64,000 bases of DNA from the NCBI GenBank assembly GCA_040754315.1, contig JBFMCS010000004.1:7390-71389 (forward strand). Reading direction: 5' to 3'. The notes beneath the pieces are model-generated. The model ran no database searches, was not told where the DNA came from, and was given only the letters and a program-made list of their open reading frames with translations. The translations under genes and the position numbers were made by a program. How positions within the stretch are numbered: position 1 is the first letter of the stretch; each line of letters begins with the position of its first letter. This document shows positions 929-21,719 of the stretch, piece by piece. Origin of the DNA: Bacillota bacterium. GTDB taxonomy: Bacteria > Bacillota > Sulfobacillia > DUSP01 > JBFMCS01.

Positions 929-1828
929 CTAGATGAGACCGCACCCCTCCATGACGCCCCTGAGAGCCCGGGCCTCATCCCGGGTTAGGGGAAGGAGCGG
1001 TTCCCTGGGGCTCCCCGCTGGCAACCCCACCATGGCCGTGGCCGCCTTCATGGTTGCCACGTACCTGGCGCCTTCCAGGTAGGCCAGGAAGGGCGTGATC
1101 TCGGCGTACATGGTCATGGCATCTTCCATATCCCCGTGCTCAGCGAGGATGGAGAGTATCTTGGCCAGCTGCCTGCCTACCACGTTGGCGGGTCCTGAAA
1201 TGGAGCCGCCTGCCCCCAAGAGGGCTCCCTCCAGGGGCGTGCTGTCACTGCCGTTAAGGACTGTAAAGGTGTGTGCGGACCGCATGGCGATCTGGGTGAA
1301 CCTCTTGATATCACCCGTGGATTCCTTGATGAACCTTATGTTCTTCTCCCCCGATAGCCTGGCTGCGAGCTCAGGATGGATATCGACGCCCACTCTCTTG
1401 GGATTGTTGTAAAGGACAACGGGGATGTCCACTGCACCAGAGATCCTCTTGTAGTGCTGGAACAGTTCCTCTTCGGACGGCTTGATATAGGGGGGTGGGG
1501 CCACCAGGACACCGTCGGCTCCAAGTTCGGCGGCACGCCTGGAATAGTCTATCACCTGCGTGGTGGTGACGGCAGTGGTACCCACCACCACAGGGGCCTT
1601 GCCCCTGGCCACCTTCACAGCGACCTTGATGACCTCATCCCTCTCTTGACCTGTGAGGAGCAATCCCTCCCCGGTTGAACCCAGGGGTACCAGCCCGCCG
1701 ACTCCCCATTCCCCAAGAAGGGTCTGACACAGGCGTTCCAGGCCCTCCAGGTCTACCCTGGAGCCGTCCCGGTTCATGGGGGTGATGTTGGCTGCCAGTA
1801 ACCCCCGGATGGGCTTTCTTCCTGCCAT
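929..1828 (-). CDS. DapA/DHDPS-family class I aldolase or deaminase. The family includes 4-hydroxy-tetrahydrodipicolinate synthase, KDG aldolase, NAL and Pyr4H2C deaminase.
   Basis: The 299-aa protein from MAGRKPIRGLLAANITPM has the typical DHDPS-family layout (GSTGE, the active Lys region and YNNP). The ATG is at 1828 with a GGAGGTG RBS. The 133-codon upstream extension in the ORF track is not coding. Confidence 0.75.
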   Translation of the reverse strand: MAGRKPIRGLLAANITPMNRDGSRVDLEGLERLCQTLLGEWGVGGLVPLGSTGEGLLLTGQERDEVIKVAVKVARGKAPVVVGTTAVTTTQVIDYSRRAAELGADGVLVAPPPYIKPSEEELFQHYKRISGAVDIPVVLYNNPKRVGVDIHPELAARLSGEKNIRFIKESTGDIKRFTQIAMRSAHTFTVLNGSDSTPLEGALLGAGGSISGPANVVGRQLAKILSILAEHGDMEDAMTMYAEITPFLAYLEGARYVATMKAATAMVGLPAGSPREPLLPLTRDEARALRGVMEGCGLI

Positions 1829-1859
1829 GGTGCCACCTCCGAATCTTGTTCTCCCGCCT

Positions 1860-3080
1860 TCATTCCACAGGTTTGAGGCTTCCCTCCCACATGTTCTCAA
1901 GGAGCCGCTCCACCTGGGAAAGACCCACATCCCTGGGATTGAATGGCCTGTAGTACTGCTCCATGGTCTCCTCAGCGTAGGACCTGAGGGACTGGCGCTC
2001 AACCCCGGCTTCCTCCAGGCTCTGGGGCAAGTTGACTTCCTCCAGTAGTTCCCAGGAGCGCTGGATGGCCCTCTCCGGCAGATTACTTGCGTCTCCGGCC
2101 ATCCCCAGGGCCCTGCCCATGTAGACCAGTTTCTCCCTGATGTAGTCAATGTTGAGCATGAGGGTGTAGGGCAGAGAGATCCCGCAACCCATCCCGTGGC
2201 CCATGCCCAGGTGATGGGTGAGAACATAGGAAATGCTGTGAGCGTAAAGACCGCCGGTCCAGTTGTACGACATCATCCCCAGGGAGGAGGCCCACGACAT
2301 GTGGTAGCGCGCCTCGATGTCGGAGCCATCCCGGGTTGCCCTGGGCAGGTAGTTGAATACGAACTCAATGGCCTTACAGCTCAGGGCGTCCCCGATGGGG
2401 TATGCCTTGGGATGCACGAGCCCTTCCACTGCGTGGCACAGCGCGTCCAGGCCCGTGCCCGCCGTTACCCTGGGAGGCATGGTGCTGGTCATGATGGGGT
2501 CTATGAGGGCCACGTCAGGGAAGAGCAGCGCGTCCGCGGAAAACACCTTCCTTCCCTCCCTGCTGAAGACGAAGGAGTTGCTGACCTCGCTCCCCGTTCC
2601 CGAGGTGGTCGGGATGGCGATCCGGGGCAGGCCTGGACCTTCGAAACCCTTCCCGCTGATGTACTCGAAGATCTCCCCGGGGTTTGTTGCGAGCATCGCC
2701 GCGGCCTTGGCAGTGTCAATGACGCTGCCGCCCCCCAGGGCCACCACCGTGCCGTACTGGTGCCTCCGGGCCATTTCCCCGGCCTCGCCTGCCAGCTCAA
2801 TCCTGGGTTCGGCCTCAACCTGGCTGAACACATCCACGTTGACCCCTGAGGACTCCAGCGCCTCCACGATTACGTCAACTACGTGGAGGCTGGACAGGGT
2901 GCTGTCGGTGACCAGTAGCGCCCTGGGCTCCCCAAGTCTCCGGGCCTCTTCTCCGGCGGTTCTGGCTACCCCGCAGCCAATTACCAGCTTGCCCAGGGCC
3001 TTGGTGCCTGCCGTTTGCCAGGTGACAGGCCTCTTCAGGCTCTCAGGGGCCTTCTTGAGCATCTCATCGTACAGAAGCAT
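1860..3080 (-). CDS. Iron-containing (group III) alcohol dehydrogenase
   Basis: The 406-aa protein has the GGGSxxD motif (GGGSVIDTAK) and the His-rich metal site (HxxxH...H) typical of Fe-ADH. The ATG is at 3080 with a GGGAGG RBS. Confidence 0.85.
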   Translation of the reverse strand: MLLYDEMLKKAPESLKRPVTWQTAGTKALGKLVIGCGVARTAGEEARRLGEPRALLVTDSTLSSLHVVDVIVEALESSGVNVDVFSQVEAEPRIELAGEAGEMARRHQYGTVVALGGGSVIDTAKAAAMLATNPGEIFEYISGKGFEGPGLPRIAIPTTSGTGSEVSNSFVFSREGRKVFSADALLFPDVALIDPIMTSTMPPRVTAGTGLDALCHAVEGLVHPKAYPIGDALSCKAIEFVFNYLPRATRDGSDIEARYHMSWASSLGMMSYNWTGGLYAHSISYVLTHHLGMGHGMGCGISLPYTLMLNIDYIREKLVYMGRALGMAGDASNLPERAIQRSWELLEEVNLPQSLEEAGVERQSLRSYAEETMEQYYRPFNPRDVGLSQVERLLENMWEGSLKPVE

Positions 3081-3120
3081 TGATCATTACCTCCCTCACG
3101 AACCTTGCCGCTTTGGAATG

Positions 3121-3885
3121 CTACCACCTGTTCCTGGTGTCCACGGGCGAACCCCAAGGCCCCACCAGGCCTCTGTGGGCGGCGAAGCACCAGTCCACCA
3201 GTGTGACAACATCGAAAACCGGAAGGCCGGTAGCCCTCTGGACCGCGGCGGAGAAGGGCACCATGTTGGTGCATTCAAAAACCAGGGCCCCTATGCCGGG
3301 GTTTTCTCGTATCAGGGCCTTGGCTCCCTCTATCATCTCTTGCTCCAGGGTTTCATACTCCAGTTCCAGGTTGTTCCCGATGAAGGCCGTGGCGAACCGG
3401 GAGCCCTCCGGCAGGCCCCCGGTGACGACTGGCACGGTACTGGTGGTGAAGCCTACCTTCTCGAAGTGAACATCGGACATGAACTGGGAGCGCTCCGTCA
3501 GTATGCCGACCCGCTGGTCCGGTCCTATCATCCTGGAGACCAGGGGAACCTGCAGGAGGCTGGAGGTGGCCACGGTCACGCACACGGACCCGGCCAGGTC
3601 CTCCTGGAAGGGTGCCAGGAACCCGCAGCTGGTGGTTATTATCCTTGCCCCTTGCGCCTCCAGTTCCCGGGCGCCTTCGATGAAGGGCTCGATGAGGCTG
3701 GCATCCGGCTCATACCCCATAACGCGGCTGGGGAGAGCCCCCTTGACCACGTGATACCTCACGGGGTAGCGCCAGGTTGAGGCGTGGCCTATGTCCCCGG
3801 GTAGCCTCGGGAAACGGGTGTCCAGCATGAGGATCCCCACTACCTGGCCATAGGTGGTGTATCCACCCCTTGTCCTCTCGCTCAT
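3121..3885 (-). CDS. Asp/Glu/hydantoin-racemase-superfamily-like protein, paralog A. The exact family and function are uncertain.
   Basis: The ~254-aa protein starts MSERTRGGYTTYGQVVGILMLDTRFPRLPGDIG. It shares a conserved N-terminal block with the adjacent paralog. The ATG is at 3885, preceded by a GGGGGGTGA RBS, and overlaps the stop of paralog B. Confidence 0.45.
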   Translation of the reverse strand: MSERTRGGYTTYGQVVGILMLDTRFPRLPGDIGHASTWRYPVRYHVVKGALPSRVMGYEPDASLIEPFIEGARELEAQGARIITTSCGFLAPFQEDLAGSVCVTVATSSLLQVPLVSRMIGPDQRVGILTERSQFMSDVHFEKVGFTTSTVPVVTGGLPEGSRFATAFIGNNLELEYETLEQEMIEGAKALIRENPGIGALVFECTNMVPFSAAVQRATGLPVFDVVTLVDWCFAAHRGLVGPWGSPVDTRNRW

Positions 3886-4640
3886 ACCATCACCCCCCCA
3901 GAGGTGCCGCCGCCCGAGGTGTAGTCGCGCTGGATGACTGAGTGGTAGACCATGGAACAAAGGGTGACAAGGTCATATACCGGCCTTTTGGTCTTGGCCA
4001 TGACCTCCCGGGAATAGGGGCAGAGGCTGGCACATTCAAACAGGAAAGCGCCAATTTCAGGCTCTTTGCCCGTCATTTCCCTGGCAGCGCTGACCACCTC
4101 GGCTTGGATGGCCCCGAAGTCTGCCTCGGGGCGGTCCTCCAGCACGCTACGGGCGAACTCGGAGGTGTTCTCGAGCCCCTGTATCACCAGGCGCGCATCC
4201 CCTGGGTCTAGCCCGGTCGAGCGGAGGTGCTCCCCTGTGAGCTGGTCCCTGGCAGCCGTGAGGACTCCTACCTTCTTCCTAGGGTTCAGTGCCTGCAGCA
4301 CCAGGGGCAACTGGAGAAGGCTGGAGGTGAACACAGGCACACTCACCGCGCGCCGCAGCTCATCCTGGTGCACCGCCAGGCGCTCCGAGCCAGCGGCAAT
4401 TGCCTTTACCCCGCCAGACTCCAGTAGCCGTGCCCCATGTACCAGGGGCTCCAGTGAGTCGTCGTTGGACCCCGGTATCCTTCCGGGGCTCGGGACTACG
4501 TGATATCTCCCGGGGAAAGGAAAGGTCCCCGCATTGCCCACATCCCCAGGGATCCTCGGGAACACCGTTTCCAGCATGAGAATACCCAGGGGAATACCGT
4601 AGGTGGTGTAACCGCCCTTGAAGACTGTGCCCACCGGCAT
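3882..4640 (-). CDS. Asp/Glu/hydantoin-racemase-superfamily-like protein, paralog B
   Basis: The ~252-aa protein starts MPVGTVFKGGYTTYGIPLGILMLETVFPRIPGDVG and shows the same motif set as paralog A. The internal ATG at 4640 was chosen over the ORF-track start to avoid overlapping the AOR gene. Confidence 0.45.
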   Translation of the reverse strand: MPVGTVFKGGYTTYGIPLGILMLETVFPRIPGDVGNAGTFPFPGRYHVVPSPGRIPGSNDDSLEPLVHGARLLESGGVKAIAAGSERLAVHQDELRRAVSVPVFTSSLLQLPLVLQALNPRKKVGVLTAARDQLTGEHLRSTGLDPGDARLVIQGLENTSEFARSVLEDRPEADFGAIQAEVVSAAREMTGKEPEIGAFLFECASLCPYSREVMAKTKRPVYDLVTLCSMVYHSVIQRDYTSGGGTSGGVMV

Positions 4641-8942: not shown

Positions 8943-9908
8943 ATGGTGCAGCCTACGGTCCAGGAGGCCAGGGCCAGGAGAAGGATATGCCAGCGGCTGG
9001 CGGAGGTCTTTGCCCGGTGGGGCTTCGCTGAGATTGAGGTGCCCTTGCTGCAACCGGCTGAAGATCTTGAACCCGTTGCAGGGCCCCAGCTCATGGAGTC
9101 CTCCTACAAGGTCATTGACCACCAGGGGAGGGTGCTTTGCCTGAGGCCGGACTTCACCGCGGCCATATCCAGCATGGTCACAGGCCAGTGGGCCTGCGAG
9201 CCGAGACCGCTGCGTCTTTCTTACTTCGGTTCAGTGTTTCGCCGGGGGACCTCTGGCATGCGGGAGACGCCCCAGGCCGGGGTGGAGAACATCGGGTCTC
9301 CGCACGGCGATCCTGATGCCGAGTGCATTGCCGTGGCGCTGGAGGGACTACAGGCTGTGGGGGTCCGGGAGGTTCACGTGGCCTTGGGGGATGCCGGCGT
9401 GCTCCGGGCCTGGCTGGACCAGGCGGGATTGACCCCGGACACCCTTAGAAGGACCGTCCAGGCCCTCTCTGGCAAGGATCTCGTATCCCTTGAGCGACTC
9501 CTGGGTGCCGCCGGGGGGGGGCTTGCCCGCTCCTTCCAGGACCTCCTTGATACCCGGGGAGACGGGGATGCCCTGGACAGGGCCTTGAAGGCCTGGCAGG
9601 GCAGTTTGCTTGAGCCTCACCTGGAGGCCCTCCGCTTGACCTACGGGCGCCTCGGGGCCATGGGGCTTTGTGAGAGTGTCTTCGTTGACCTCGGTCTCCT
9701 GCGGGACCTGGACTACTACACAGGCCTGGTATTTGACGTGTACATAAGGGGGCTTGGCGAGCCCGTTGCTGGCGGGGGACGGTACGACGATCTCCTGGGC
9801 CGGATCGGTGCTGCGGAGGCGGCTGTGGGCTTTGCCTATAACGTGGAGGCCATTTCGAAGATATCGACGGAGGGTGCCCTGAGTGGGTTCTCTCTCAGTA
9901 TCCACTAG
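8943..9908 (+). CDS. hisZ: ATP phosphoribosyltransferase regulatory subunit HisZ (HisRS paralog)
   Basis: It resembles class II aaRS-like HisZ and lies immediately upstream of a short-form hisG. Confidence 0.8.
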   Translation: MVQPTVQEARARRRICQRLAEVFARWGFAEIEVPLLQPAEDLEPVAGPQLMESSYKVIDHQGRVLCLRPDFTAAISSMVTGQWACEPRPLRLSYFGSVFRRGTSGMRETPQAGVENIGSPHGDPDAECIAVALEGLQAVGVREVHVALGDAGVLRAWLDQAGLTPDTLRRTVQALSGKDLVSLERLLGAAGGGLARSFQDLLDTRGDGDALDRALKAWQGSLLEPHLEALRLTYGRLGAMGLCESVFVDLGLLRDLDYYTGLVFDVYIRGLGEPVAGGGRYDDLLGRIGAAEAAVGFAYNVEAISKISTEGALSGFSLSIH

Positions 9909-9910
9909 GG

Positions 9911-10579
9911 GTGAGGCGGTTGGATCTTGTTACCTATGCCCTGCCCAAGGGACGCCTCATGAATGGCACGTTGAGGCTTCTCCGGTCAGCGGGGGTGCCC
10001 TGCCCCCAGGAGGACGGGAGGCGTCTTTTACTGGAGATTCCCGAGAAGGGACTTAGGTTCCTTTTCTCCCGGCCCTCGGACGTTCCCGTCTACGTACAGT
10101 ATGGGGCGGCTGACCTCGGCATCTGCGGGAAGGATACCCTCATCGAGATGGGCCCCAAGGTATACGAGGTGCTGGACCTTGGGTTCGGGGCCGGGCGTTT
10201 TGTGCTGGCCACAGTGTCCGAATGGGTGGATCAGGGTTTTGACTGGACAAGGCCTGGGTTGAGGGTGGCCACCAAGTTCCCCAGGATCGCCTCGCTGTTC
10301 CTGGAGAGCCAGGGGGCCAGTCACCACATCATCAAGGTACACGGAGCGGCGGAGCTGGCACCCCGGGTGGGTTTAGCGGAAATGGTATTCGACATAACGG
10401 CCACAGGGAAGACCCTGGCGGAAAACGGCCTCAGGGTGGTGGCCAACGCCGGCACCACAACTGCCAGGCTGGTGGCGAACCCTGCCAGCTACAAGGTGAA
10501 GGCCCGCGAGCTGGGGGACGTCATCGCGAGGGTAAAGGGGTTTATCCAGAGCGAGGGTCACACGCTGGCCGGGCTTTGA
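9911..10579 (+). CDS. hisG: ATP phosphoribosyltransferase, short form
   Basis: It has the LPKGRL motif and HisG-family layout, is ~222 aa, and starts with GTG. Confidence 0.9.
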   Translation: MRRLDLVTYALPKGRLMNGTLRLLRSAGVPCPQEDGRRLLLEIPEKGLRFLFSRPSDVPVYVQYGAADLGICGKDTLIEMGPKVYEVLDLGFGAGRFVLATVSEWVDQGFDWTRPGLRVATKFPRIASLFLESQGASHHIIKVHGAAELAPRVGLAEMVFDITATGKTLAENGLRVVANAGTTTARLVANPASYKVKARELGDVIARVKGFIQSEGHTLAGL

Positions 10580-10601
10580 TGAAGGCCATCGGGGAGAGGC
10601 G

Positions 10602-11189
10602 GTGAACCTGTTGCGCGAAGTGGAGCACAAGAGGACCACACGGGAGACGTCCATTCATCTCCGGATCAACCTGGACGGTAATGGCGAGTCCCGTGTTGAG
10701 GTTGGAGGCTTTCTCGGTCACATGCTGGATACCCTCTCAAGGCATGGCATGTTTGACCTCGAGCTCAAGGCCGAGGTGTTCCTTGACCCTGACGGGCACC
10801 ACACAGCAGAGGACCTTGGGATCGTACTGGGAGAGGCCATAAGGAGGTCTGTGGGCCAGGGCCAAGGCCTGTCCAGGTTCGGCCACTCGGTGGTGCCCAT
10901 GGACGATGCCCTGGTGGAGGTGGCCCTGGACCTGTCGGGAAGGTCCTACTGCAACTACGACCTGGGGCCTGTGGGGGACCTGGGGGTCAATGCGTTCTTA
11001 CGCGAGTTCTTCCTGGGTTTTTCCCGCAGGGCCGAGGCCACCATCCACCTGAGGAGGCTGGCGGGTCACGATGCACACCACGTGGGCGAGGCTGCCTTCA
11101 AGGCCTTTGGGCGGGCTCTCTCCCAGGCTGTCTCACCCGATCCCAGGCTCAGCGGGAGGGCGCTGTCAACCAAGGGCGTGCTGTCGTGA
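10602..11189 (+). CDS. hisB: Imidazoleglycerol-phosphate dehydratase
   Basis: It has the RTTRETSI, HHTAEDLGI and HLRRLAGHDAHH motifs of IGPD. Confidence 0.9.
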   Translation: MNLLREVEHKRTTRETSIHLRINLDGNGESRVEVGGFLGHMLDTLSRHGMFDLELKAEVFLDPDGHHTAEDLGIVLGEAIRRSVGQGQGLSRFGHSVVPMDDALVEVALDLSGRSYCNYDLGPVGDLGVNAFLREFFLGFSRRAEATIHLRRLAGHDAHHVGEAAFKAFGRALSQAVSPDPRLSGRALSTKGVLS

Positions 11190-11932
11190 ACATGCTGGTG
11201 CTGCCGGCCATTGACATTATGGGAGGCCAGTGCGTCCGGCTCCTGAAGGGCAGGCCGGAGGAGAGCAGGGTCTACCACCAAGATCCCCTGGACGCCGCCC
11301 TCCGGTGGGAGCAAGAAGGGGCCGGAGCCCTCCACCTGGTGGACCTGGATCGTGCCCTGGGAGGGAAGCCAAATTCCGATGCTGTCAGGCGCATCGTCGA
11401 CTCCGTGACGGTCCCCGTGCAGTTGGGGGGGGGCTTGAGGAGCAGGGAGGCGGTAAAGGAGGCGTTTGGGTCCGGGGTGTGGAGGGTCGTCATGGGCACC
11501 GCCGCGCTGAGGTCCAGGGACCTTCTTTGCTGGTGCCTGGACCGGTTCGGGGACAGGGTGGTAGTCGCCCTTGATCACAGGGAGGACCGGGTGGTGGTTT
11601 CCGGCTGGACCCAGGAGCACGGCCTCTCATTGAAGGAGGCTACTGAAACCCTGCTGGAGCAGGGGGTCAGGGAGGTACTGGCCACCGCGGTAGAACGGGA
11701 TGGCACCATGGAGGGTCCGGATCTTGCAGGCTTGGCCATCCTGGTACGCTCCGGGTTGAGGGTGATAGCATCGGGCGGTGTCACCAGGCTTGAAGACCTG
11801 CGGGACCTCGCGGGGCTGCCTAACCTGACCGGGGTTGTCATTGGAAGGGCTCTCTATGAAGGCGTTTTATCCCTGGGGGAGGTCCTTAGGGTATCCCGTG
11901 GTGAGGGGAGGCTTGATTGTGAGCGAGGTTGA
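11186..11932 (+). CDS. hisA: ProFAR isomerase (HisA)
   Basis: It has the [15 protein letters not shown]-terminus and the (beta/alpha)8 HisA/HisF fold signature. No hisH or hisF is adjacent. Confidence 0.8.
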
Positions 11933-12527
11933 ACAGGGGACACTTACCCCCGTGGTGGTACAGCACGCTATCACGGGACAGGTGCTCATGCTGGCCTATA
12001 CCAACGCTGAGCTCCTGGAGAGAACCGCCAGGGAAGGGCGTGTCTGGTTCTGGAGCAGGTCCAGGGGGGGGCCCTGGCTGAAGGGCGCTACCAGCGGGAA
12101 CTACCTGAACGTACAGTCCATCACAATGGACTGTGACCAGGACGCGGTACTGGTGGAGGTGACCCCTGAGGGGCCCGCATGCCATACAGGCAAGACCAGC
12201 TGCTTTCACAGGCCGGTTATGGGTAGTGCATCCCCCGGCATCCTCCTGAAGCTGGGCGGGGTAATCGAGAGCCGGGTGATGAAGAAGCCCGAGGGGTCCT
12301 ACACGGCAGCCCTGGCTGGGAAGGGACCGGAGGCCATACTGAGGAAGGTCTCGGAGGAAGCCTTTGAGGTAGTCCTGGCCGCCAAAGAGGAGGGAGCCCC
12401 GGGCTTGGTGTGGGAGGTTGCTGACCTCTGGTACCACTGCATGGTGCTGTTGAGCGTCTTGGGATACAAGGCCGAGGACGTCCTTGAGGAACTTGCCCGC
12501 AGGGCGAAGAGGGATGAACAAGGGTGA
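11913..12527 (+). CDS. hisI: Bifunctional phosphoribosyl-AMP cyclohydrolase / phosphoribosyl-ATP pyrophosphatase (HisIE)
   Basis: It has the HisI domain (LIPAVVQ-like [19 protein letters not shown]) followed by the HisE MazG-like domain. A TTG or GTG start after a GGAGG RBS is preferred over the ORF-track start, which overlaps hisA. Confidence 0.8.
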
Positions 12528-13036
12528 GTAGGCTGCTTTCCAGAAGGAGGGGATAGAATATACGTGGGCTTGAAAGTACCCTGTGTGAACCGGAGAAGTG
12601 CCCCGAGTGCGGGGCAGGAAGTTACCTCGTACGACCGGATGGTCCGCTTCGGCTGCCGTTCTGAGCATGGGCGACAAGTACGACCTTCATATCCTGGCCT
12701 CTTGGCCACCCTCCAGGTTAAGGGCTCTCCATTAGCCCAGGCCCTGCGCTTACTGTGTTCCTCGGGCCCTCTTGCATCCTAGTCACTGGATCCAGGCGTC
12801 GTAGCCCCTGGGGCCTGGAACACACTACGGGGATGGTAGCCCAGGTTCCGCCACAGCATCGCAATAGTGTCTCCAGTGCGGGCCACTTATACCCCCTTTT
12901 TTATGACTCTCTTATGTGCGACCTGCCTTTTTACATGCCTTTTTTACAGGCTTTCCTGTACAGTCTAAGGGGGGTAGTCTCCTGCCCTCAGCCCAATTGT
13001 CTGACTCGGATGCATTCCCTGTAAGGGAGGATCAGC

Positions 13037-13525
13037 ATGTCACATCAGTGTGAGTGTCTGGAAACTCTCCTGGAGGAGAGTATCAAGCGGAATGGCCATG
13101 GGTTTGTGTCCATCCTTCAGGACATTCAAGAAGACTGCGGTTACTTGCCCGAGGATGCACTGAGGGCCCTTGCCAGGAAGACAGGGGTTCCCCTGAGTGA
13201 GATCTACCGCACAGCAACCTTCTACAACTACTTCTCACTTGTACCCCGCGGGAAGCACCAGGTAGTCGTATGCACAGGGACGACTTGTCACGTCCGCGGA
13301 GCCAAGCGGGTGTCCAGGGAGATCACAAAGAACCTGGGAATACGCGTGGGCGAGGTGACTGAGGATCGTGAGTTCTCACTAGAGTCTGTAAACTGCCTTG
13401 GATGCTGCGCCTTTGCTCCCGTGGTGGTGGTGGATGGCAGGCACTACGGTAACCTGACTCCTGACGAGGTGAAGAAGGTGTTAGACTCCGTCAAGCGAGA
13501 AGCCGTGACCGTTGGAGCCACATGA
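13037..13525 (+). CDS. NuoE/HydC-like thioredoxin-fold [2Fe-2S] protein (24-kDa subunit homolog)
   Basis: It has the C...C...CxxC pattern (CTGTTCHVRG...CLGCCAFAP) of the NuoE family. Confidence 0.8.
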   Translation: MSHQCECLETLLEESIKRNGHGFVSILQDIQEDCGYLPEDALRALARKTGVPLSEIYRTATFYNYFSLVPRGKHQVVVCTGTTCHVRGAKRVSREITKNLGIRVGEVTEDREFSLESVNCLGCCAFAPVVVVDGRHYGNLTPDEVKKVLDSVKREAVTVGAT

Positions 13526-13539
13526 AAGGAGAACCGTTG

Positions 13540-16500
13540 ATGAGCGTCACACCAAGAAGACTCTTGGCACCAGGCGACCTGGCTGAGTTGGCAGATTGCC
13601 TTAAGACTCGTCTAGATACTCGGAAACCCTGCGTGACGGTGTGTGGCGACACCGGCTGTACGGTTTGCGGCTCCTTGGGGCTTGCAGAGAGTTTCCGGAA
13701 CATCATCGACAAGAAGGGACTTAGTGACAAGGTTGACTTGAAGGTCACCGGATGTCTCGGCTTCTGTGAGCAGGCGCCAGCGGTCATGGCCATGCATGAT
13801 GAGGTCCTGTACTGCAAGGTGACCCCGGATGACGTGGAAGAATTGCTGGAGGCGATCATTGCTGGCAAAGTAGTGGATCGCCTGGTATATGCGGATCCCG
13901 TTACGGGTCGGATTATCCCCCGTGCCAGGGATATTCCCTTCTATAGCAGGCAAACACGCATGCTCCTGGAAGCCAATTGGCATACGAACCCCGTTGACAT
14001 CTACGACTACATTGCCAGGGGCGGGTACCACGCTCTTTCTCGCGTGCTGGCGGGAATGAACCCTGAAGAGGTTATCGCTATGATGAAAGAGGCATGCCTT
14101 CGGGGAAGAGGTGGAGCAGGGTTTCCCACTTGGCTGAAGTGGGATATCGCACGAAAGCAGCTCGAGAAGGAAAGATACATGATCTGTAATGCTGACGAGG
14201 GAGACCCAGGAGCCTTCATGGATCGTAGCATCCTGGAAGGTAACCCTCACGCGCTTTTGGAAGGGATGCTGATAGCAGGCTTCGCCATAGGATCGAGCAA
14301 TGGGATAATCTACGTAAGGGCAGAGTATCCCACTGCGGTAGCCAAGATCCAGCACGCTATCCAACAGTGCCAGGATCTTGGCCTTGTTGGGAAGGATATC
14401 CTCGGGTCTGGGTTTGATTTTGACCTGACCATAAGCAAAGGAGCTGGTGCCTTTGTTTGCGGTGAGGAGACAGCCCTGATTCGCGCCGCTGAGGGAGGAG
14501 TTGCCGAACCGCGACAGAAGCCTCCCTACCCTTCCGAATCGGGTTTCAAGGGCAAGCCCACTGTGATTAACAACGTGGAGACCCTGGCCAATGTTCCCAT
14601 CATCGTGGAGAGGGGGGCCGGCGCATACCGCAGTCTCGGGACGGAGAAATCAGGAGGCACGAAGATATTCTGCCTGGTGGGAAAGGTGCTCAATGCTGGG
14701 CTCATAGAGGTTTCCTTTGGGACCAGACTCGGTGATGTCATCTTCGACATTGGTGGCGGAACGAAGAAGGGGAAACGGTTTAAGGCAGTTCAAACCGGTG
14801 GCCCCTCTGGCGGGTGTCTCCCAGCGGACAAACTGAACCTTCATATAGATTTTGAAGAATTGGCTCTGGCGGGTTCCATCATTGGCTCGGGCGGCATGAT
14901 CATAATGGACGAGGATACCTGTATTGTGGATGTGACCCGCTATTTCCTGGGTTTTCTCAAGAGTGAATCCTGCGGAAAGTGCTTTTCCTGCCGTGTGGGA
15001 ATCGAGCGCATGCTTGAGATCGTGGACCGGATTGCTCAAGGCAGGGCAGTGGAGTCAGACCTGGATCTCCTTGAGGAATTAGCCCTCACCGTCAAGGATA
15101 CATCTCTATGCGGGCTCGGCCAGACAGCTCCAAACCCTGTTCTCAGCAGTCTCCGGTACTTCAGGGAGGAGTACCTGGAGCACATAAGACACAAGTTTTG
15201 CCGAGCGACGGTGTGTGAGTCCCTTTTCCGGTCCCCTTGCCAGAATTCGTGCCCCGCGGGTGTGGATGTGCCAATTTACGTCGACCAGATCAGGCATGGT
15301 GAGTTCATTGAAGCCTACGAGACAGTTCAAAAGAATAATCCCTTCCCTGTTGTCTGCGGGAGAGTGTGTCATCATCCCTGCGAGTCTAGGTGCCGGAGAG
15401 AGCAGATAGATAAGCCGGTAGCCATCAGGGCGTTGAAGCGCTTTGCCGCCGATTACGCCGTGAGTAATGGCCAAAGACCCGCGAGGGTTCCAGGCATTAA
15501 GAGCAGCAAGAAGGTAGCGGTCATCGGGGCTGGGCCAGCCGGGCTGACCGCTGCTTTCTATCTAGGCCGGAAAGGCCACCAGGTAACGGTATTCGAGTCC
15601 TCTCCGGTGCCCGGCGGCATGCTGGCCCTAGGGATCCCCGATTACCGGTTGCCCAAGGACTCTCTCAATGCTGACATCGAGGCCATCAGGAACTCAGGGG
15701 TCAAGATGAGGATGAACTCGGCGCTTGGCAGGGACTTCACTCTCCAAGACCTGAGGGAGGATGGTTACGAGGCCATATTCCTGGCCATAGGTGCCCATAA
15801 GGACAGGGATATGGGGATCCCCGGGGAGGGGCTGGAGGGTGTCCTCTCCAGCGTCGAATTCCTTCGGGCCGTCAATTTGGGGCATCAGGTGGACGTCGAC
15901 GGCAAAGCGGTGGCAGTCGTAGGGGGAGGAAACGCAGCCATTGACGCGGCCCGGGTTGCCCTGCGAAAGGGCGCTCGTGTGGTACACATACTTTACAGGC
16001 GCCGGCAGGAAGACATGCCAGCGATGAAAGAGGAGATCGCTGACGCACTGGCTGAGGGAATACACCTCACACAGTTGACTGCGCCAGTGCGAATACTGGG
16101 TGACGATAAGGTTAGGGCCATCGAGTGTGTCCGTATGGGACTGGGGGACTTCGACGAGACCGGAAGGAGGCGCCCGGTGGCGGAAGCAGGCACGGAGTTT
16201 CACCTTCCTGTGGATGTTGTTATCCGGGCCATCGGCCAGGCGCCGGATGTTCCAGATACTGTCCGCAAGACCGTGTCGATAGCTGGAAACGGGACGATTG
16301 CTGTTGACTCTCGTAGTCTCTCCACTCAGGTAGCGGGGGTGTTTGCCGGCGGTGATTGTGTTACAGGTCCAGCCATGGCCATTGATGCCATAGCCCAGGG
16401 CAGGATAGCAGCAGCCTCAATTGACAAGTACCTGGGGGGTGACGGTGTGCTGTGGGGAGATGACGAAGAGCCCGTACGCCAGTTCCGGTCGGAGATCATC

Positions 16501-16692
16501 CAGACTCCGCTGGATCGCTATGCTCCAGGGAAGATCCCGTTGAGTGAACGAATCAGGGGCTTCCGGGAGGTAGAAATGGCGTACTCCGAGGAAGTCGCGT
16601 GTAATGAGGCGTCCCGTTGCCTGCGGTGTGACGTGCAGCAAGATGACGAAGAAGAACAAGACAACCGGCACTCTTTGGCGGGAGCATCCTAG
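13540..16692 (+). CDS. Fusion protein: a thioredoxin-like 2Fe-2S domain, the NuoF/HydB (51-kDa) FMN/NADH module, a Cys-rich Fe-S linker, and a GltD/NfnB-like FAD/NAD(P)H pyridine-nucleotide-disulfide oxidoreductase domain
   Basis: The NuoF core carries GGAGFPT, the FMN site and the 4Fe-4S motif ESCGKCFSCRVG. A Cys-rich linker follows (CRATVCESLFRSPCQNSCPAG...VCGRVCHHPCESRC). The GltD-like Rossmann motifs VAVIGAGPAGL and VAVVGGGNAAIDAA come next. An ATG at 13540 after an AAGGAG RBS is the likely start. Confidence 0.8.
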   Translation: MSVTPRRLLAPGDLAELADCLKTRLDTRKPCVTVCGDTGCTVCGSLGLAESFRNIIDKKGLSDKVDLKVTGCLGFCEQAPAVMAMHDEVLYCKVTPDDVEELLEAIIAGKVVDRLVYADPVTGRIIPRARDIPFYSRQTRMLLEANWHTNPVDIYDYIARGGYHALSRVLAGMNPEEVIAMMKEACLRGRGGAGFPTWLKWDIARKQLEKERYMICNADEGDPGAFMDRSILEGNPHALLEGMLIAGFAIGSSNGIIYVRAEYPTAVAKIQHAIQQCQDLGLVGKDILGSGFDFDLTISKGAGAFVCGEETALIRAAEGGVAEPRQKPPYPSESGFKGKPTVINNVETLANVPIIVERGAGAYRSLGTEKSGGTKIFCLVGKVLNAGLIEVSFGTRLGDVIFDIGGGTKKGKRFKAVQTGGPSGGCLPADKLNLHIDFEELALAGSIIGSGGMIIMDEDTCIVDVTRYFLGFLKSESCGKCFSCRVGIERMLEIVDRIAQGRAVESDLDLLEELALTVKDTSLCGLGQTAPNPVLSSLRYFREEYLEHIRHKFCRATVCESLFRSPCQNSCPAGVDVPIYVDQIRHGEFIEAYETVQKNNPFPVVCGRVCHHPCESRCRREQIDKPVAIRALKRFAADYAVSNGQRPARVPGIKSSKKVAVIGAGPAGLTAAFYLGRKGHQVTVFESSPVPGGMLALGIPDYRLPKDSLNADIEAIRNSGVKMRMNSALGRDFTLQDLREDGYEAIFLAIGAHKDRDMGIPGEGLEGVLSSVEFLRAVNLGHQVDVDGKAVAVVGGGNAAIDAARVALRKGARVVHILYRRRQEDMPAMKEEIADALAEGIHLTQLTAPVRILGDDKVRAIECVRMGLGDFDETGRRRPVAEAGTEFHLPVDVVIRAIGQAPDVPDTVRKTVSIAGNGTIAVDSRSLSTQVAGVFAGGDCVTGPAMAIDAIAQGRIAAASIDKYLGGDGVLWGDDEEPVRQFRSEIIQTPLDRYAPGKIPLSERIRGFREVEMAYSEEVACNEASRCLRCDVQQDDEEEQDNRHSLAGAS

Positions 16693-18992: not shown

Positions 18993-19042
18993 CCTCAGGA
19001 TTGGGCCGAGTAGGGGAGAGACCTGAAAGGGGGACTCACACA

Positions 19043-19543
19043 ATGGCTAGCATCCTGGAGTATGCAGGAATCAAGGTGCCGGCGGGAGAGATGCTGAAGG
19101 AGGCTCTGATATACTGCCAGGCCAAGACTGGCAGGAAAGATGCCCTGGAACTAATCAGGAAGGGTGAGCCAACGGCAACAGGCTACTTCCGGTACAGGCT
19201 TGCCCAGGAGATCGGGTCCCTTCTGGGACAGGCGGATAATACCATCACCCAGGTATACCTGTACCCGGAGGAGGCCCTCGAGGAGAATGCTCCGCCAACG
19301 GTACCCCTGACACTGGTGGTGTGCACCGAAAGGCGCACGGCGGCCCTGGACGCTGTGGTCGAGAGTCTGGATGGCGACCTCTTGGCGGAGTACCGGAAGA
19401 TGGTGGAGCCAGCAGCGGACGGAGTGACTTCCTTCTCAAACATATGTCTGGTAGAACAAGAGGAATTATACCAGCGCAAGGGGCTCAGTGCCATAATAGG
19501 CTCGCTGAGTACACCCAGCTTCTGCGTTTGGCGGCGCCATTAA
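19043..19543 (+). CDS. Hypothetical protein, co-oriented and tightly spaced with the oxidoreductase genes
   Basis: The ORF runs from MASILEYAGIKVP with no recognisable domain. The start was chosen at the internal ATG. Confidence 0.35.
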   Translation: MASILEYAGIKVPAGEMLKEALIYCQAKTGRKDALELIRKGEPTATGYFRYRLAQEIGSLLGQADNTITQVYLYPEEALEENAPPTVPLTLVVCTERRTAALDAVVESLDGDLLAEYRKMVEPAADGVTSFSNICLVEQEELYQRKGLSAIIGSLSTPSFCVWRRH

Positions 19544-19573: not shown

Positions 19574-21001
19574 TTGCCTGCGATGGCCATGTCATCGCAG
19601 GATTTTCTTTTCCCGGCTAGAAGTGTAGGCAGTGGACTCCACGGTAAGGGTGTGATGAGAGTGGGCAACGGGCAGGGATGGGCCCGCCCCTGTGATGAAG
19701 GGAAGTACCAGGCCTTTCACGCGTGCCGTGACTTCCGCGCCTGCGGTGTCGCGGGGCTCTGCCGCAGCCTCATTGCTGACTTCAACACGGATACCTTCAT
19801 TCCCCAGGCTGTCTTGCTTCTCACAAGACACCTGCCCTTCGACGCCGGTGTGCTCTTTCTATACGATGACACCCTGGACAGGCTGGTCCCGGCATCGTGT
19901 TACGGTTACGAGATGGATGCCCTGGAGCACCTGGCGCTTGGGGACTCCATCATGTACGAGGTTTTTGACACCGGCAAGCCGAGGGTCTCCCGTTCGAGCA
20001 AGCGTATCCGCGAGATCCAGGCCCAGCTCACCAGGAGCGGGAAGGGTAGTCTTCCCATGTCCTCCTGCATGGTGTGTGTCCCGTTGCGCCTGGATTCCGT
20101 TGCCCTGGGGTGCGTGGTGCTGGAGAGCCGCTCTGCCCAGGTGGTAGTAGGCCGGCGTCTCCTGTCCTGCGTCATCCATGCCCTGGAACTCCTGGTGCTC
20201 TTTGTTCACAAGGCTCAAACTATGCGGCAGAACCAGGAGAAGGGCTTCTCGGAGCTGGTTTCCACCCTCTCCCATGAGCTCAGGACCCCCCTGACGTGTA
20301 TCAAGGGCTACACTACCACGCTTCTGGAGAACCCCGAGCTGGACCACGTCAACGGCCGGGAGTTCCTGGAGATAATAGACAGTGAGAGCGATACCATGAA
20401 TAACCTCATCAAGGACCTGATGGACTCCTCTCTAATCGAGGCGGGGTTCCTGCGGATAAGGAAACAGCCGATGCTGATGACGAAGATCGTACATAAGGCC
20501 GTGGAGAACGCCAGCGTTCAGACGAGGAAGCACAGGTTTGTCGTGAGCATCTCCCAGGACTTCCCGGTCTTGGAGGGGGACCCGGACAGGATGAAGCAGG
20601 TCCTGGACAATATCCTGGACAATGCCGTGAAGTACTCCCCTGAAGGGGGCTTGATAGTAATCAATGGAAGGGTTGTGGGCAGGGAAGCCATTATCAGCAT
20701 AGCCGACCAGGGCATGGGGATTGCCCCAGAGGACCTGAACAGGCTCTTCGAGAAGTTCTTCAGGGTCAAGTCGGAGATGGCCGGGACGGGCCTGGGGCTG
20801 CCCGTGGCCCATGAGATCATCGAAAAACACGGGGGACGGATATGGGCAGAGAGTGCGCCCGGGAAGGGGAGCACCTTCTTCTTCGCGCTGCCCCTCACAG
20901 ACATTTCCCGTAGGAACGGGGGGCCGTCCCAGGTGCCGGATACTGCAAGGGGAACGAGGGAGGGCCTAGATGAAGAAGCACCTGATTCTAGTAGTCGATG
21001 A
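19574..21001 (+). CDS. Cytoplasmic GAF-domain sensor histidine kinase (KdpD C-terminal-like)
   Basis: A GAF region is followed by an HisKA H-box (LSHELRTPL) and an HATPase_c domain (N, G1, G2 boxes). There are no TM segments. It overlaps the response-regulator gene. Confidence 0.75.
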   Translation: MPAMAMSSQDFLFPARSVGSGLHGKGVMRVGNGQGWARPCDEGKYQAFHACRDFRACGVAGLCRSLIADFNTDTFIPQAVLLLTRHLPFDAGVLFLYDDTLDRLVPASCYGYEMDALEHLALGDSIMYEVFDTGKPRVSRSSKRIREIQAQLTRSGKGSLPMSSCMVCVPLRLDSVALGCVVLESRSAQVVVGRRLLSCVIHALELLVLFVHKAQTMRQNQEKGFSELVSTLSHELRTPLTCIKGYTTTLLENPELDHVNGREFLEIIDSESDTMNNLIKDLMDSSLIEAGFLRIRKQPMLMTKIVHKAVENASVQTRKHRFVVSISQDFPVLEGDPDRMKQVLDNILDNAVKYSPEGGLIVINGRVVGREAIISIADQGMGIAPEDLNRLFEKFFRVKSEMAGTGLGLPVAHEIIEKHGGRIWAESAPGKGSTFFFALPLTDISRRNGGPSQVPDTARGTREGLDEEAPDSSSR

Positions 21002-21719
21002 TGAACCCCGTATACTCAGGCTCATCCAGACCAACCTGAAGCTGGCGGGGTACGCTGTGCTCTGCGCCGGAGACGGGCCCTCGGGATTGGAGATCGTGGA
21101 GAGGGAGAACCCCGACTTGGTTATCCTGGATATTCTCCTGGTGGGTCCAATCGATGGCTACGCGGTATGCGAGCGCATTAGAGAGTTCTCCGATGTTCCC
21201 GTACTGATGCTTACCGCCAAGAGCCAGGACGCGGACAAGATAAGGGGTTTTGACGCTGGGGCAGATGACTACCTGACCAAACCCTTCAGTTCCCAGGAGT
21301 TGCTGGCCAGGGTCAAGGCCATCCTGAGGCGAAGCGGTGAGGGTTCCAAGGTCAAGGGACCCTCGACACTGGTCTGCGGGGAGATCTCCATCAACTTCGC
21401 CCAGGCCAGGATAACCACTGAGCATGCCGGCACGGTGGATCTCACCCCCACCGAGTTCAAGCTCCTCTCGGAGCTGGCTAAGCACCCCAATGAGATCGTG
21501 CTGCACGAAGACTTGCTCACCAGGGTCTGGGGGAGCGAGTACAGAAACGAGGTGGACTACCTCAGGGCCTACATCTGGTACCTCCGGAGGAAACTTGAGA
21601 GGGACCCCTCGCGTCCCCGGTATCTCCTGTCCAGGCAGGGGCTGGGTTACATGCTGGCATGCCCGGGGGATCCGGAGAGTGCTCCGGAGCAGGGAGCCCC
21701 CGGGGAGCCGCCCGGCTAG
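20970..21719 (+). CDS. OmpR-family response regulator (KdpE-like)
   Basis: It has a receiver domain (DDE...D...K) and a winged-helix DNA-binding domain. Confidence 0.85.
   Translation: MKKHLILVVDDEPRILRLIQTNLKLAGYAVLCAGDGPSGLEIVERENPDLVILDILLVGPIDGYAVCERIREFSDVPVLMLTAKSQDADKIRGFDAGADDYLTKPFSSQELLARVKAILRRSGEGSKVKGPSTLVCGEISINFAQARITTEHAGTVDLTPTEFKLLSELAKHPNEIVLHEDLLTRVWGSEYRNEVDYLRAYIWYLRRKLERDPSRPRYLLSRQGLGYMLACPGDPESAPEQGAPGEPPG

Follow-up and report, generated by a model that had tools for sequence, protein, structure and literature searches.

What becomes of a Bfu-type NADH dehydrogenase subunit when a GltD module stands in the place of its C-terminal ferredoxin-like domain? The question is raised by a gene in a stretch of 64,000 nucleotides (the window) from a Bacillota bacterium (assembly GCA_040754315.1, contig JBFMCS010000004.1), that encodes a single polypeptide joining a NuoF-type core to a GltD/NfnB-type module. 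In Bfu enzymes, the flavin mononucleotide (FMN) of the subunit BfuB is the site at which NAD(H) reacts, and a third substrate communicates via the clusters of BfuA and the cluster B1. Low-potential electrons exit via the mobile cluster C1 of BfuC to the clusters B3 and B4 of the C-terminal domain of BfuB. Judged by its sequence, the fusion protein is clearly derived from BfuB. New in our analysis are the swap of the ferredoxin port as a cassette at the hinge of this subunit, recurring across several Bfu enzyme classes, and the placement of the window fusion in a highly conserved and apparently undescribed cluster with a GltB-like protein, which occurs in both variants.

The two halves of the fusion protein

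Searches with hidden Markov models (HMMs) divided the protein into two halves (Table 1; residues are counted from the ATG at 13522). In the N-half, Pfam placed 2Fe-2S_thioredx at residues 36–111, Complex1_51K at 189–359, SLBB at 382–431 and NADH_4Fe-4S at 470–554, and in the C-half Fer4_20 at 561–649 and Pyr_redox_2 at 663–960. The NCBIfam model nuoF_fam covers residues 155–555 (2.5e-139), and GltD-type models cover approximately residues 524–1042 (approximately 1e-150). The domain boundaries are clean and do not overlap, and the statistics rule out chance for the composite architecture. All domains proposed in an initial annotation made from the sequence, a thioredoxin-like 2Fe-2S domain, the NuoF core, and the flavin adenine dinucleotide (FAD)/NAD(P)H domain of GltD, were delimited in this way.

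Residues ~17–570 of the fusion align over their whole length at 45–56% identity to BfuB chains (7p5h, 7q4v, 8a6t, 7t2r, and 9mqx). Shared with the BfuB/HydB subunits of HydABC (T. maritima, A. woodii, and T. kivui), NiFe-HydABCSL and WOR-Bfu are the N-terminal 2Fe-2S domain, the FMN/NADH site, the cluster B1 and the zinc hinge. The FMN/NADH site is marked by the motifs GRGGAGF (195–201), CNADEGDPGA (222–231), and GAGAFVCGEET (307–317); in the alignment to 7t2r_B, 7q4v_B, and 9bov_B, which covers residues ~37–570 at ~50% identity, the aligned stretch includes the four N-terminal cysteines, GRGGAGFP, CNADEGDPGAF, and GAGAFVCGEETAL. The ligands of the [4Fe-4S] cluster B1 are C484, C487, C490, and C530. 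The hinge segment EHIRHKFCRATVC of the fusion matches HIKDKRCPAKIC of 7t2r_B, and the NfnABC structures of 2025 identify this segment as the zinc ('B2') hinge that connects the core with the C-terminal domain (PMC12018979; PMC11829005). Its histidine is kept in Bfu B subunits and absent from non-bifurcating homologues (PMC12018979). Unlike BfuB, the fusion is without the B3/B4 domain (two CX2CX2CX3CP motifs, the ferredoxin site; IPR017896) and carries a GltD module of 480 residues instead. This replacement had been proposed before and is borne out here, as Fer4_20 and the remainder of GltD follow directly after the hinge and the protein gives no match to Fer4 ferredoxin domains.

The stretch previously described as a cysteine-rich linker with eight cysteines is not a linker: C560 and C565 belong to the zinc hinge, and the other six to the Fer4_20 domain of GltD. 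The cysteines of this domain align to 9bov_A, 9n5u_A, 8oh5_C, and 4ylf_B and make up two [4Fe-4S] sites, that are completed by C1033 and C1036 from the C-terminal tail. Both GxGxxG Rossmann motifs noted earlier are present, GAGPAG at residues 669–674 and GGGNAA at 801–806. The second is followed by YRR (825–827) in the sequence YRRRQEDMPA, of which the counterpart in the NADPH-binding NfnB/Stn/NfnA modules is YRRTREEMPA. With the FMN/NADH motifs of NuoF and this YRR-bearing GltD site, the protein indeed has two pyridine-nucleotide sites, one of them of the NADPH type.

The tail aligns to the N-terminus of NfnB (4ylf_B residues 14–43, 5jca_L 11–48), and to the segment behind the FAD domain of 9bov_A and 8oh5_C. 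The GltD module is therefore circularly permuted, as in the inserts of Stn/NfnABC enzymes, where the 'RCLxC' segment is likewise placed after the FAD domain. These inserts are also the best PDB matches of the GltD half (C. saccharolyticus 9bov_A, 3e-120; T. sibiricus 9n5u_A, 8e-116; S. ovata StnC 8oh5_C, 3e-103; 40–45% identity), followed by NfnB/NfnI-L and GltD itself.

The FMN, FAD, and iron-sulfur (FeS) motifs are intact on alignment. Among 22 aligned fusion proteins (approximately 50% pairwise identity), C78, C82, C432, C484, C487, C490, C530, H554, C560, and C565 are invariant in the N-half, and C573, C577, C616, C620, C624, GxGPxG, GGGN, YRR, C1033, and C1036 in the C-half. An AlphaFold2 (AF2) model built on this alignment had a mean predicted local distance difference test (pLDDT) score of 86.9 and a predicted template modeling (pTM) score of 0.82, with a pLDDT of 82–93 in the hinge region (540–569), 87–95 in the tail (1000–1029), and 72 for residues 1030–1039. 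In Foldseek searches of the PDB, the N-half resembled solved BfuB chains (target-normalized TM-score, TMt, 0.84–0.95) and the C-half the GltD inserts of NfnABC/Stn; a solved chain covering more than about half of the fusion model was not found (query-normalized TM-score, TMq, ≤0.51).

That both halves belong to a single polypeptide, as first annotated, is supported by one intact open reading frame (ORF, 13522–16692, plus strand), which is open across 1056 codons with no stop and no frameshift. The first ATG (13522) shares nucleotides with the stop codon of the gene before it (ATGA), and a start there yields 1056 aa. The initial annotation had combined this length with positions 13540–16692; the second ATG, at 13540, yields 1050 aa and is the likelier start, because AAGGAG lies 8 nt before it. 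The difference of six residues is immaterial. An assembly or sequencing artefact that joined a nuoF-like gene with a gltD-like gene has a vanishingly small probability, considering the continuous frame and the recurrence of the same junction, with conserved residues, in >120 clusters at 90% identity, at least ~140 clusters at 50% identity and at least 56 genomes. The metagenome gene call for a 99%-identical protein is shorter (1005 aa), but this reflects the choice of start codon only and provides no support for an artefact. At locus L170 (JGI 3300045950, Ga0484001_0000384; 1001–4018) the public call begins at residue 52, so that the N-terminal 2Fe-2S domain loses Cys41 and Cys46, and the gene for the GltB-like protein (see below) is likewise called short (488 aa). 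Such miscalls of start codons could mask the N-terminal cluster in surveys.

Exchange of modules at the hinge and the spread of the fusion

The fused and the canonical BfuB remain collinear to the end of H-x5-C-x4-C-x-x-L. After the hinge, canonical BfuB continues with x7-9-CxxCxxCxxxC and fused BfuB with x2-4-PCxxxCP, placing the first GltD cysteine just 8 residues past the hinge. At the junction (marked by a slash), the window reads CESLFR/SPCQNSCP, and the syntenic canonical protein of locus L007 reads CRPLFR/YSIDKELCIGCGSC. The collinearity up to the hinge and the precision of the junction indicate that the two C-terminal modules behave like interchangeable cassettes, plugged in at the zinc hinge.

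The N-half of the window protein is 67% identical to that of a fused protein (L006) and 66% to that of the canonical L007, with the next best at 59%. Its GltD half is nearest to L006 (61%), followed by hydrogenase-linked fusions (55 and 54%), and is only 39–49% identical to the GltD half of other GltB-linked fusions; the nearest-neighbor pattern differs between the two halves. In a neighbor-joining tree of N-halves, the proteins group by type of partner, and fused and canonical forms are interleaved inside each group. The interleaving is extensive on a tree of the GltB-like proteins as well, where at least 15 changes of the fused or canonical character are required over 70 tips, a count that is indicative only, both trees being neighbor-joining trees without bootstrap or other support values. 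Exchange of the modules has apparently happened repeatedly. Two further loci (L012, 2620–11756, and L029, 936–10478) contain tandem hydrogenase gene sets, each with its own NuoE-like and HydA genes; one set has a short BfuB (526–542 aa) without any C-terminal domain, the other a GltD-fused BfuB.

The architecture had been called unusual at first, which its distribution contradicts. A homologue search returned at least 8000 scored relatives, of which the best 120 clusters (90% identity) are nearly all ~1000–1070 aa long with both domain sets. Their sources are Bacillota, Poribacteria, Caldatribacterium, Bipolaricaulota, Aminicenantes, Planctomycetota and others, and 'NuoF' is the database label of almost all of them. 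Searched with a junction peptide of 146 residues (505–650), 80 cluster representatives (50% identity) matched at E ≤1e-30, and approximately 140 of the best 150 matches span the junction in one stretch. A scan of one genome per species gave at least 56 non-redundant full-length fusions, all in metagenome-assembled genomes, including one Promethearchaeota (Loki) genome and another archaeon.

Beside these fusions lie genes for the [FeFe]-hydrogenase HydA (~18 loci), for molybdopterin subunits of the formate dehydrogenase type (~15 loci, one within a Wood-Ljungdahl cluster), for the HoxU-like and GltB-like pair (6 loci), for large subunits of [NiFe]-hydrogenases behind a HoxU-like gene (at least 3 loci), for methylenetetrahydrofolate reductase (1 locus, a probable partner), and for an HdrA-like FeS flavoprotein (1 locus); the remaining contigs are cut short. 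The fusion is a modular variant of BfuB that serves hydrogenases, formate dehydrogenases, probably methylenetetrahydrofolate reductase, and GltB-like proteins. Fused BfuB was also seen in Hox-like [NiFe] clusters or beside methylenetetrahydrofolate reductase at L045 (9641–10936), L053 (4435–5970), L059 (11460–12881), and L041 (5201–6106).

The fusion itself is already known, having been noted once in the 2018 genome paper of Vallitalea guaymasensis, which remarked on a GltD-bearing HydB from the annotation (PMC6163223). There, the second trimeric [FeFe]-hydrogenase of strain L81 has an enlarged HydB with a GltD domain, which we liken to our protein by its published description only; it differs in having an [FeFe]-hydrogenase and not a GltB-like protein as partner, and is known from annotation alone. 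The same fusion is implicit in a rule by which HydDB classifies its entries, 'GltD ... but not NuoF' (PMC5037454). The Bfu survey of Schut et al. (2022) mentions neither GltD nor glutamate in its text or supplement. The architecture is common in sequence databases, among uncultured anaerobes, and has been noted before, and its characterization is absent from the literature found.

The GltB-like cluster and its surroundings

As in Bfu enzymes, genes for a BfuC and a BfuA-type FeS subunit adjoin the fusion gene, and a gene for a GltB-like protein follows (Table 1). The HoxU-like BfuA has one [2Fe-2S] site, two ferredoxin-type [4Fe-4S] sites and eight extra C-terminal cysteines (C177–C218), conserved in 97–100% of 73 homologues, and is without the His-ligated NuoG-type cluster region. 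The pattern of the extra cysteines suggests one or two further clusters, that may face the GltB-like subunit.

The GltB-like protein, an 'FMN-binding glutamate synthase family protein', shows a weak match to Pfam Glu_synthase (1e-11, residues 280–408); an NCBIfam search gave no family, and a PDB sequence search just two weak matches, both AI-designed TIM barrels. Its identity of 67–77% across many bacterial phyla and Thermoplasmata/Loki archaea is unusual in degree. AF2 predicts a confident TIM barrel at approximately residues 100–480 and a poorly predicted N-terminus, which contains the invariant motif C29-x2-C32-x3-C36-x3-C40. Foldseek matches of the barrel are FMN alpha-hydroxyacid oxidases, IDI-2 and the FMN domain of GltS, at 12–17% identity, which places the modeled fold among the FMN TIM barrels without fixing the substrate. 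It is presumed to be the catalytic ('third substrate') subunit.

Every locus that extends far enough upstream, among three loci inspected singly and those of an 80-locus metagenome scan, has the gene order NuoE-like, BfuB, HoxU-like (~230 aa), GltB-like, and the HoxU-like gene always lies directly upstream of the GltB-like gene. A full-length GltB-like gene is present in 86 loci; 41 of these have a GltD-fused and 28 a canonical BfuB, and 17 are too short to classify, so that fused forms account for 59% (41/69) of the classifiable clusters. L007 has full synteny with the window, including the small ORF, the GAF kinase and the response regulator described below, yet encodes a canonical BfuB of 622 aa ending in a ferredoxin domain. 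As far as the literature found goes, the four-gene cluster looks like an apparently undescribed class of Bfu enzyme.

Of 89 GltB-like loci, 13 are flanked by a gene for a glutamate dehydrogenase-like protein, which in 11 cases lies on the same strand; both BfuB variants are represented, and bacteria as well as archaea. Such loci include L008 (2839–4044), L036 (4238–5767), L039, L098, L099, L106, L126, L154, L156, L163, L164, and others. Directly upstream of nuoE, 11–13 GltB-like clusters have a small Cys-rich ORF (~90–140 aa; C-x2-C...C-x-H/CEEY repeats), for instance at L018 (719–1147), L092, L094, L096, L110, L111, L123, L148, L150, L151, and L155. Neither the glutamate dehydrogenase-like gene nor the Cys-rich ORF was found in the window. 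Taken with the predicted fold, the glutamate dehydrogenase neighbors loosely point to a glutamate or 2-oxoacid chemistry for the third substrate.

Behind the GltB-like gene lies a conserved small ORF, which has a 44% identical homologue in the same position in L007 (9703–10194) and gave no match in Pfam and NCBIfam searches; its product may serve the complex in maturation or as an accessory protein. Downstream of the operon, in the window as in L007, are genes for a GAF-domain histidine kinase and an OmpR-type response regulator (19574–21719). The true start of the kinase is probably further downstream, because the listed TTG at 19574 overlaps the hairpin at 19577–19601. Sensor kinases flank 19 of 89 related loci. 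Directly upstream, a run of his genes (hisZ-like, hisG, hisB, hisA/F, and hisIE; 8943–12527) lies on the same strand, with no functional link seen. The 510 nt between the his operon and nuoE (12528–13036) contain no convincing ORF and gave no Rfam match for a riboswitch and no clear promoter match (3 sites found versus 3.0 expected); this stretch may be a regulatory leader.

Table 1. Features of the fusion gene and its operon in the window, with the basis of each assignment
Feature	Position	Strand	Basis
BfuB::GltD fusion	13540..16692 (13522 alternative start)	+	HMMs, PDB alignments, AF2/Foldseek
N-terminal thioredoxin-like domain, residues 36–111, Cys41/46/78/82 (B5 site)	13627..13854	+	Pfam; aligned to 7t2r_B, 7q4v_B
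NuoF-type core, residues 155–555	13984..15186	+	TIGR01959 2.5e-139; PDB alignments; Foldseek
Bfu zinc ('B2') hinge H554-x5-C560-x4-C565, completed by C432	15181..15216	+	Alignment to 7t2r_B, 7q4v_B
GltD N-terminal FeS domain (Fer4_20, 561–649): C573, C577, C612, C616, C620, C624	15202..15468	+	Pfam 1.9e-24
GltD FAD/NAD(P)H domain, residues 663–960	15508..16401	+	Pfam Pyr_redox_2 5.7e-33; GAGPAG = FAD, GGGNAA and YRR = NADPH
C-terminal tail, residues 1005–1040 (...RGFREVEMAYSEEVACNEASRCLRCD), closing the FeS domain	16534..16641	+	Alignment to NfnB N-terminus
BfuC/NuoE/HoxE-like subunit, 162 aa, one [2Fe-2S] (C1)	13037..13525	+	2Fe-2S_thioredx 18–152, E 7e-47; NCBIfam HoxE/NuoE
Short BfuA/HoxU-like FeS subunit, 234 aa	16711..17415	+	Pfam Fer2_4 and Fer4_7; NCBIfam HoxU 2.7e-35
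GltB-like FMN TIM-barrel protein, 526 aa	17412..18992	+	Weak Pfam Glu_synthase; AF2/Foldseek; 4-nt overlap with the preceding gene
Conserved small ORF, 180 aa, probably last operon gene	19001..19543	+	Homologues in L007, L090, L116
Terminator-like hairpin, 11-bp stem (19577–19601), then T-run; closes operon	19577..19611	+	

Candidate mechanisms and their weight

Of the features by which Bfu enzymes are recognized (Schut et al., 2022; Li/Xiao et al., 2025), the core with B1, the B5 domain, the His/Cys3 hinge and the adjacent BfuC and BfuA are present, and the ferredoxin domain is not. In the survey of Schut et al. (2022), a ferredoxin-type domain was the defining mark of BfuB. Because GltD replaces this domain, the fusion falls outside their InterPro-based definition, and because the defining C-terminal domain is absent, we file it as a variant and not a member of BfuB. 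A NuoF of complex I would be encoded in a nuoA-N operon and be ~420–450 aa long with no extra domains; this identity was rejected, as the scores for TIGR01959 and PRK11278 are below the cut-offs and the operon is without membrane subunits. The database name 'NADH-quinone oxidoreductase subunit NuoF' is a misnomer for the fusion.

The Stn/Nfn-Bfu enzymes NfnABC (Sporomusa ovata 8oh5, C. saccharolyticus 9bov, and T. sibiricus 9n5u) combine the same BfuBC core with the same GltD building blocks (NADPH, FAD, and two [4Fe-4S]), in the same permuted form. In these, however, GltD is located inside BfuA, on the mid-potential input path, and the ferredoxin domain of BfuB is kept (PMC10482914; PMC11829005). 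In the window, GltD is located on BfuB at the position of the ferredoxin domain, BfuA is short and HoxU-like instead of NuoG-like, and the GltB-like subunit is extra, where Stn/NfnABC has no other catalytic subunit. The initial annotation saw in the two nucleotide sites the hallmark of Nfn/Stn-type confurcation; this stands as regards the GltD/NfnB-type module, but is overstated in view of these differences and of an operon with no NfnA/PyrK-like partner. Moreover, because the operon also encodes a GltB-like catalytic subunit, the enzyme is not simply a transhydrogenase.

In the reading that we hold about evenly poised between right and wrong, the GltD clusters would sit at the position of B3/B4, and NADP(H) would replace ferredoxin as the second redox partner. 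This model is the simplest, because GltD starts 8 residues past the hinge and swaps cassette-wise, while the other Bfu signatures are kept. The fusion, the NuoE-like BfuC, the HoxU-like FeS wire and the GltB-like FMN TIM-barrel subunit would then form a soluble complex, in which NAD(H) reacts at the FMN, NADP(H) takes over the canonical role of ferredoxin through the FAD and the GltD clusters, and the third substrate is turned over at the GltB-like subunit. Physiological potentials are roughly -280 mV for NAD and -380 mV for NADP. A coupled enzyme could reduce NAD+ and NADP+ jointly with electrons from a mid-potential donor, or could combine NADH and NADPH to drive a reduction. The analysis shows the architecture, cofactor motifs, operon, modularity and swap point; we infer the formation of a complex, the electron path, the coupling of NAD to NADP by bifurcation or confurcation, and the direction of the reaction. 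GltD clusters are low-potential, NADPH-linked wires (PMC8097209), and GltD of the Stn type does not bifurcate alone (PMC10482914). A further step, that BfuB::GltD represents a ferredoxin-independent branch of Bfu enzymes with a core splitting electron pairs between NAD+ (high-potential) and NADP+ (low-potential, via GltD), is more tentative and in our view rather doubtful.

Several points weigh against a role of NADP(H) in place of ferredoxin. The gap between NAD and NADP, approximately 100 mV in vivo, is small compared with that between NAD and ferredoxin. The count of module swaps is indicative only, as stated above. Schut et al. regard the B3/B4 ferredoxin domain as part of the invariant bifurcating core, and its loss could mean that there is no bifurcation. 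The full-text literature, with most subscription journals outside the search, contained no biochemical study of a NuoF/HydB-GltD fusion or a GltB-like Bfu cluster. Finally, the frequency of GltD fusions in GltB-like clusters also fits a direct hand-off of electrons from GltD to the GltB-like protein, as in glutamate synthase (GOGAT).

In such a GOGAT-like enzyme, GltD would pass NADPH electrons via its two [4Fe-4S] clusters directly to the FeS/FMN centers of the GltB-like subunit, with NuoF/NuoE as a separate and uncoupled NADH input. As in GltBD, a GltD-type NADPH module shares an operon with an FMN TIM-barrel protein, the invariant N-terminal 4-Cys motif of the latter could accept electrons, and glutamate dehydrogenase genes are recurrent neighbors. 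Nevertheless, 28 of the GltB-like clusters have a canonical BfuB and no GltD at all, the fused subunit also serves hydrogenases, formate dehydrogenases and other partners unrelated to GltB, and GltD is tethered at the hinge of BfuB and not on the side of BfuA and the GltB-like protein, so that we consider a hand-off of this kind unlikely. NuoE, NuoF, and HoxU-like subunits are present in the window in addition to those of GltBD, and the FeS motif of the GltB-like protein is an N-terminal CxxCxxxCxxxC and not the 3-Cys motif of GltS. A true glutamate synthase, whose alpha subunit combines a class II amidotransferase, an FMN/[3Fe-4S] synthase and a GXGXG domain, was rejected: the GltB-like protein has neither the first nor the last of these, in addition to its weak Glu_synthase and missing NCBIfam matches.

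Somewhat more improbable is a loss of bifurcation together with the ferredoxin domain, which would leave a dehydrogenase with NADH (at the FMN) and NADPH (at the FAD) as alternative donors or acceptors of one FeS chain. Characterized non-bifurcating NuoF homologues are without a C-terminal ferredoxin domain (PMC9304861), and the behavior of StnC-type modules cited above is compatible with this. Yet the fusion keeps, as invariant features, the Bfu-specific N-terminal 2Fe-2S domain and the His554/Cys site of the hinge, which are lacking in non-bifurcating homologues; BfuC with its C1 cluster is retained, and an ungated path from NADPH via FMN to NAD+ would amount to a futile transhydrogenase. 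Close to the view of the initial annotation is the notion of a built-in analogue of NfnAB that would work with NADH, NADPH, and ferredoxin, in which the FAD of GltD would bifurcate, sending one electron via the two [4Fe-4S] clusters to an external ferredoxin and the other via a nearby [2Fe-2S] cluster (C1 or B5) to FMN and NAD+. The C-half of the fusion is 40–43% identical over ~420 residues to NfnB/NfnI-L of NfnAB/NfnSL (T. maritima 4ylf, P. furiosus 5jca), two [2Fe-2S] domains are on hand, and ferredoxin docks at the distal [4Fe-4S] cluster of NfnB (PMC8097209). The module is, however, of the permuted Stn/NfnABC type (E 1e-120 to 1e-103), for which an absence of bifurcation was demonstrated (PMC10482914), and by this analogy bifurcation at the GltD FAD is unlikely. 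A domain scan of the operon proteins found no NfnA/PyrK-like small subunit (FAD and [2Fe-2S]), and a simple port accounts better than another site of bifurcation would for how often the module is exchanged with a plain ferredoxin domain; we regard an NfnAB analogue as very unlikely.

Present-day Bfu studies take the BfuBC core to be invariant, its ferredoxin-binding C-terminal domain included, and the working of the low-potential branch is still debated. A large natural family that exchanges the ferredoxin-binding domain for an NADPH module is a natural experiment on the role of this domain, and tests whether the Bfu core can couple NAD to NADP instead of ferredoxin. It would change the reading of hydrogenase, formate dehydrogenase, and Wood-Ljungdahl clusters in metagenomes, where the subunit is now mostly mislabeled 'NuoF'. 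Should the fused proteins form a ferredoxin-independent branch, H2, formate or the substrate of the GltB-like protein would be coupled to the NADH and NADPH pools at once, and a high NADPH/NADP ratio could be set, or NADH oxidation pulled, without ferredoxin. As a corollary, the GltB-like cluster would be a new and very widespread class of Bfu enzymes in bacteria and archaea, with a third substrate related to glutamate or 2-oxoacids.

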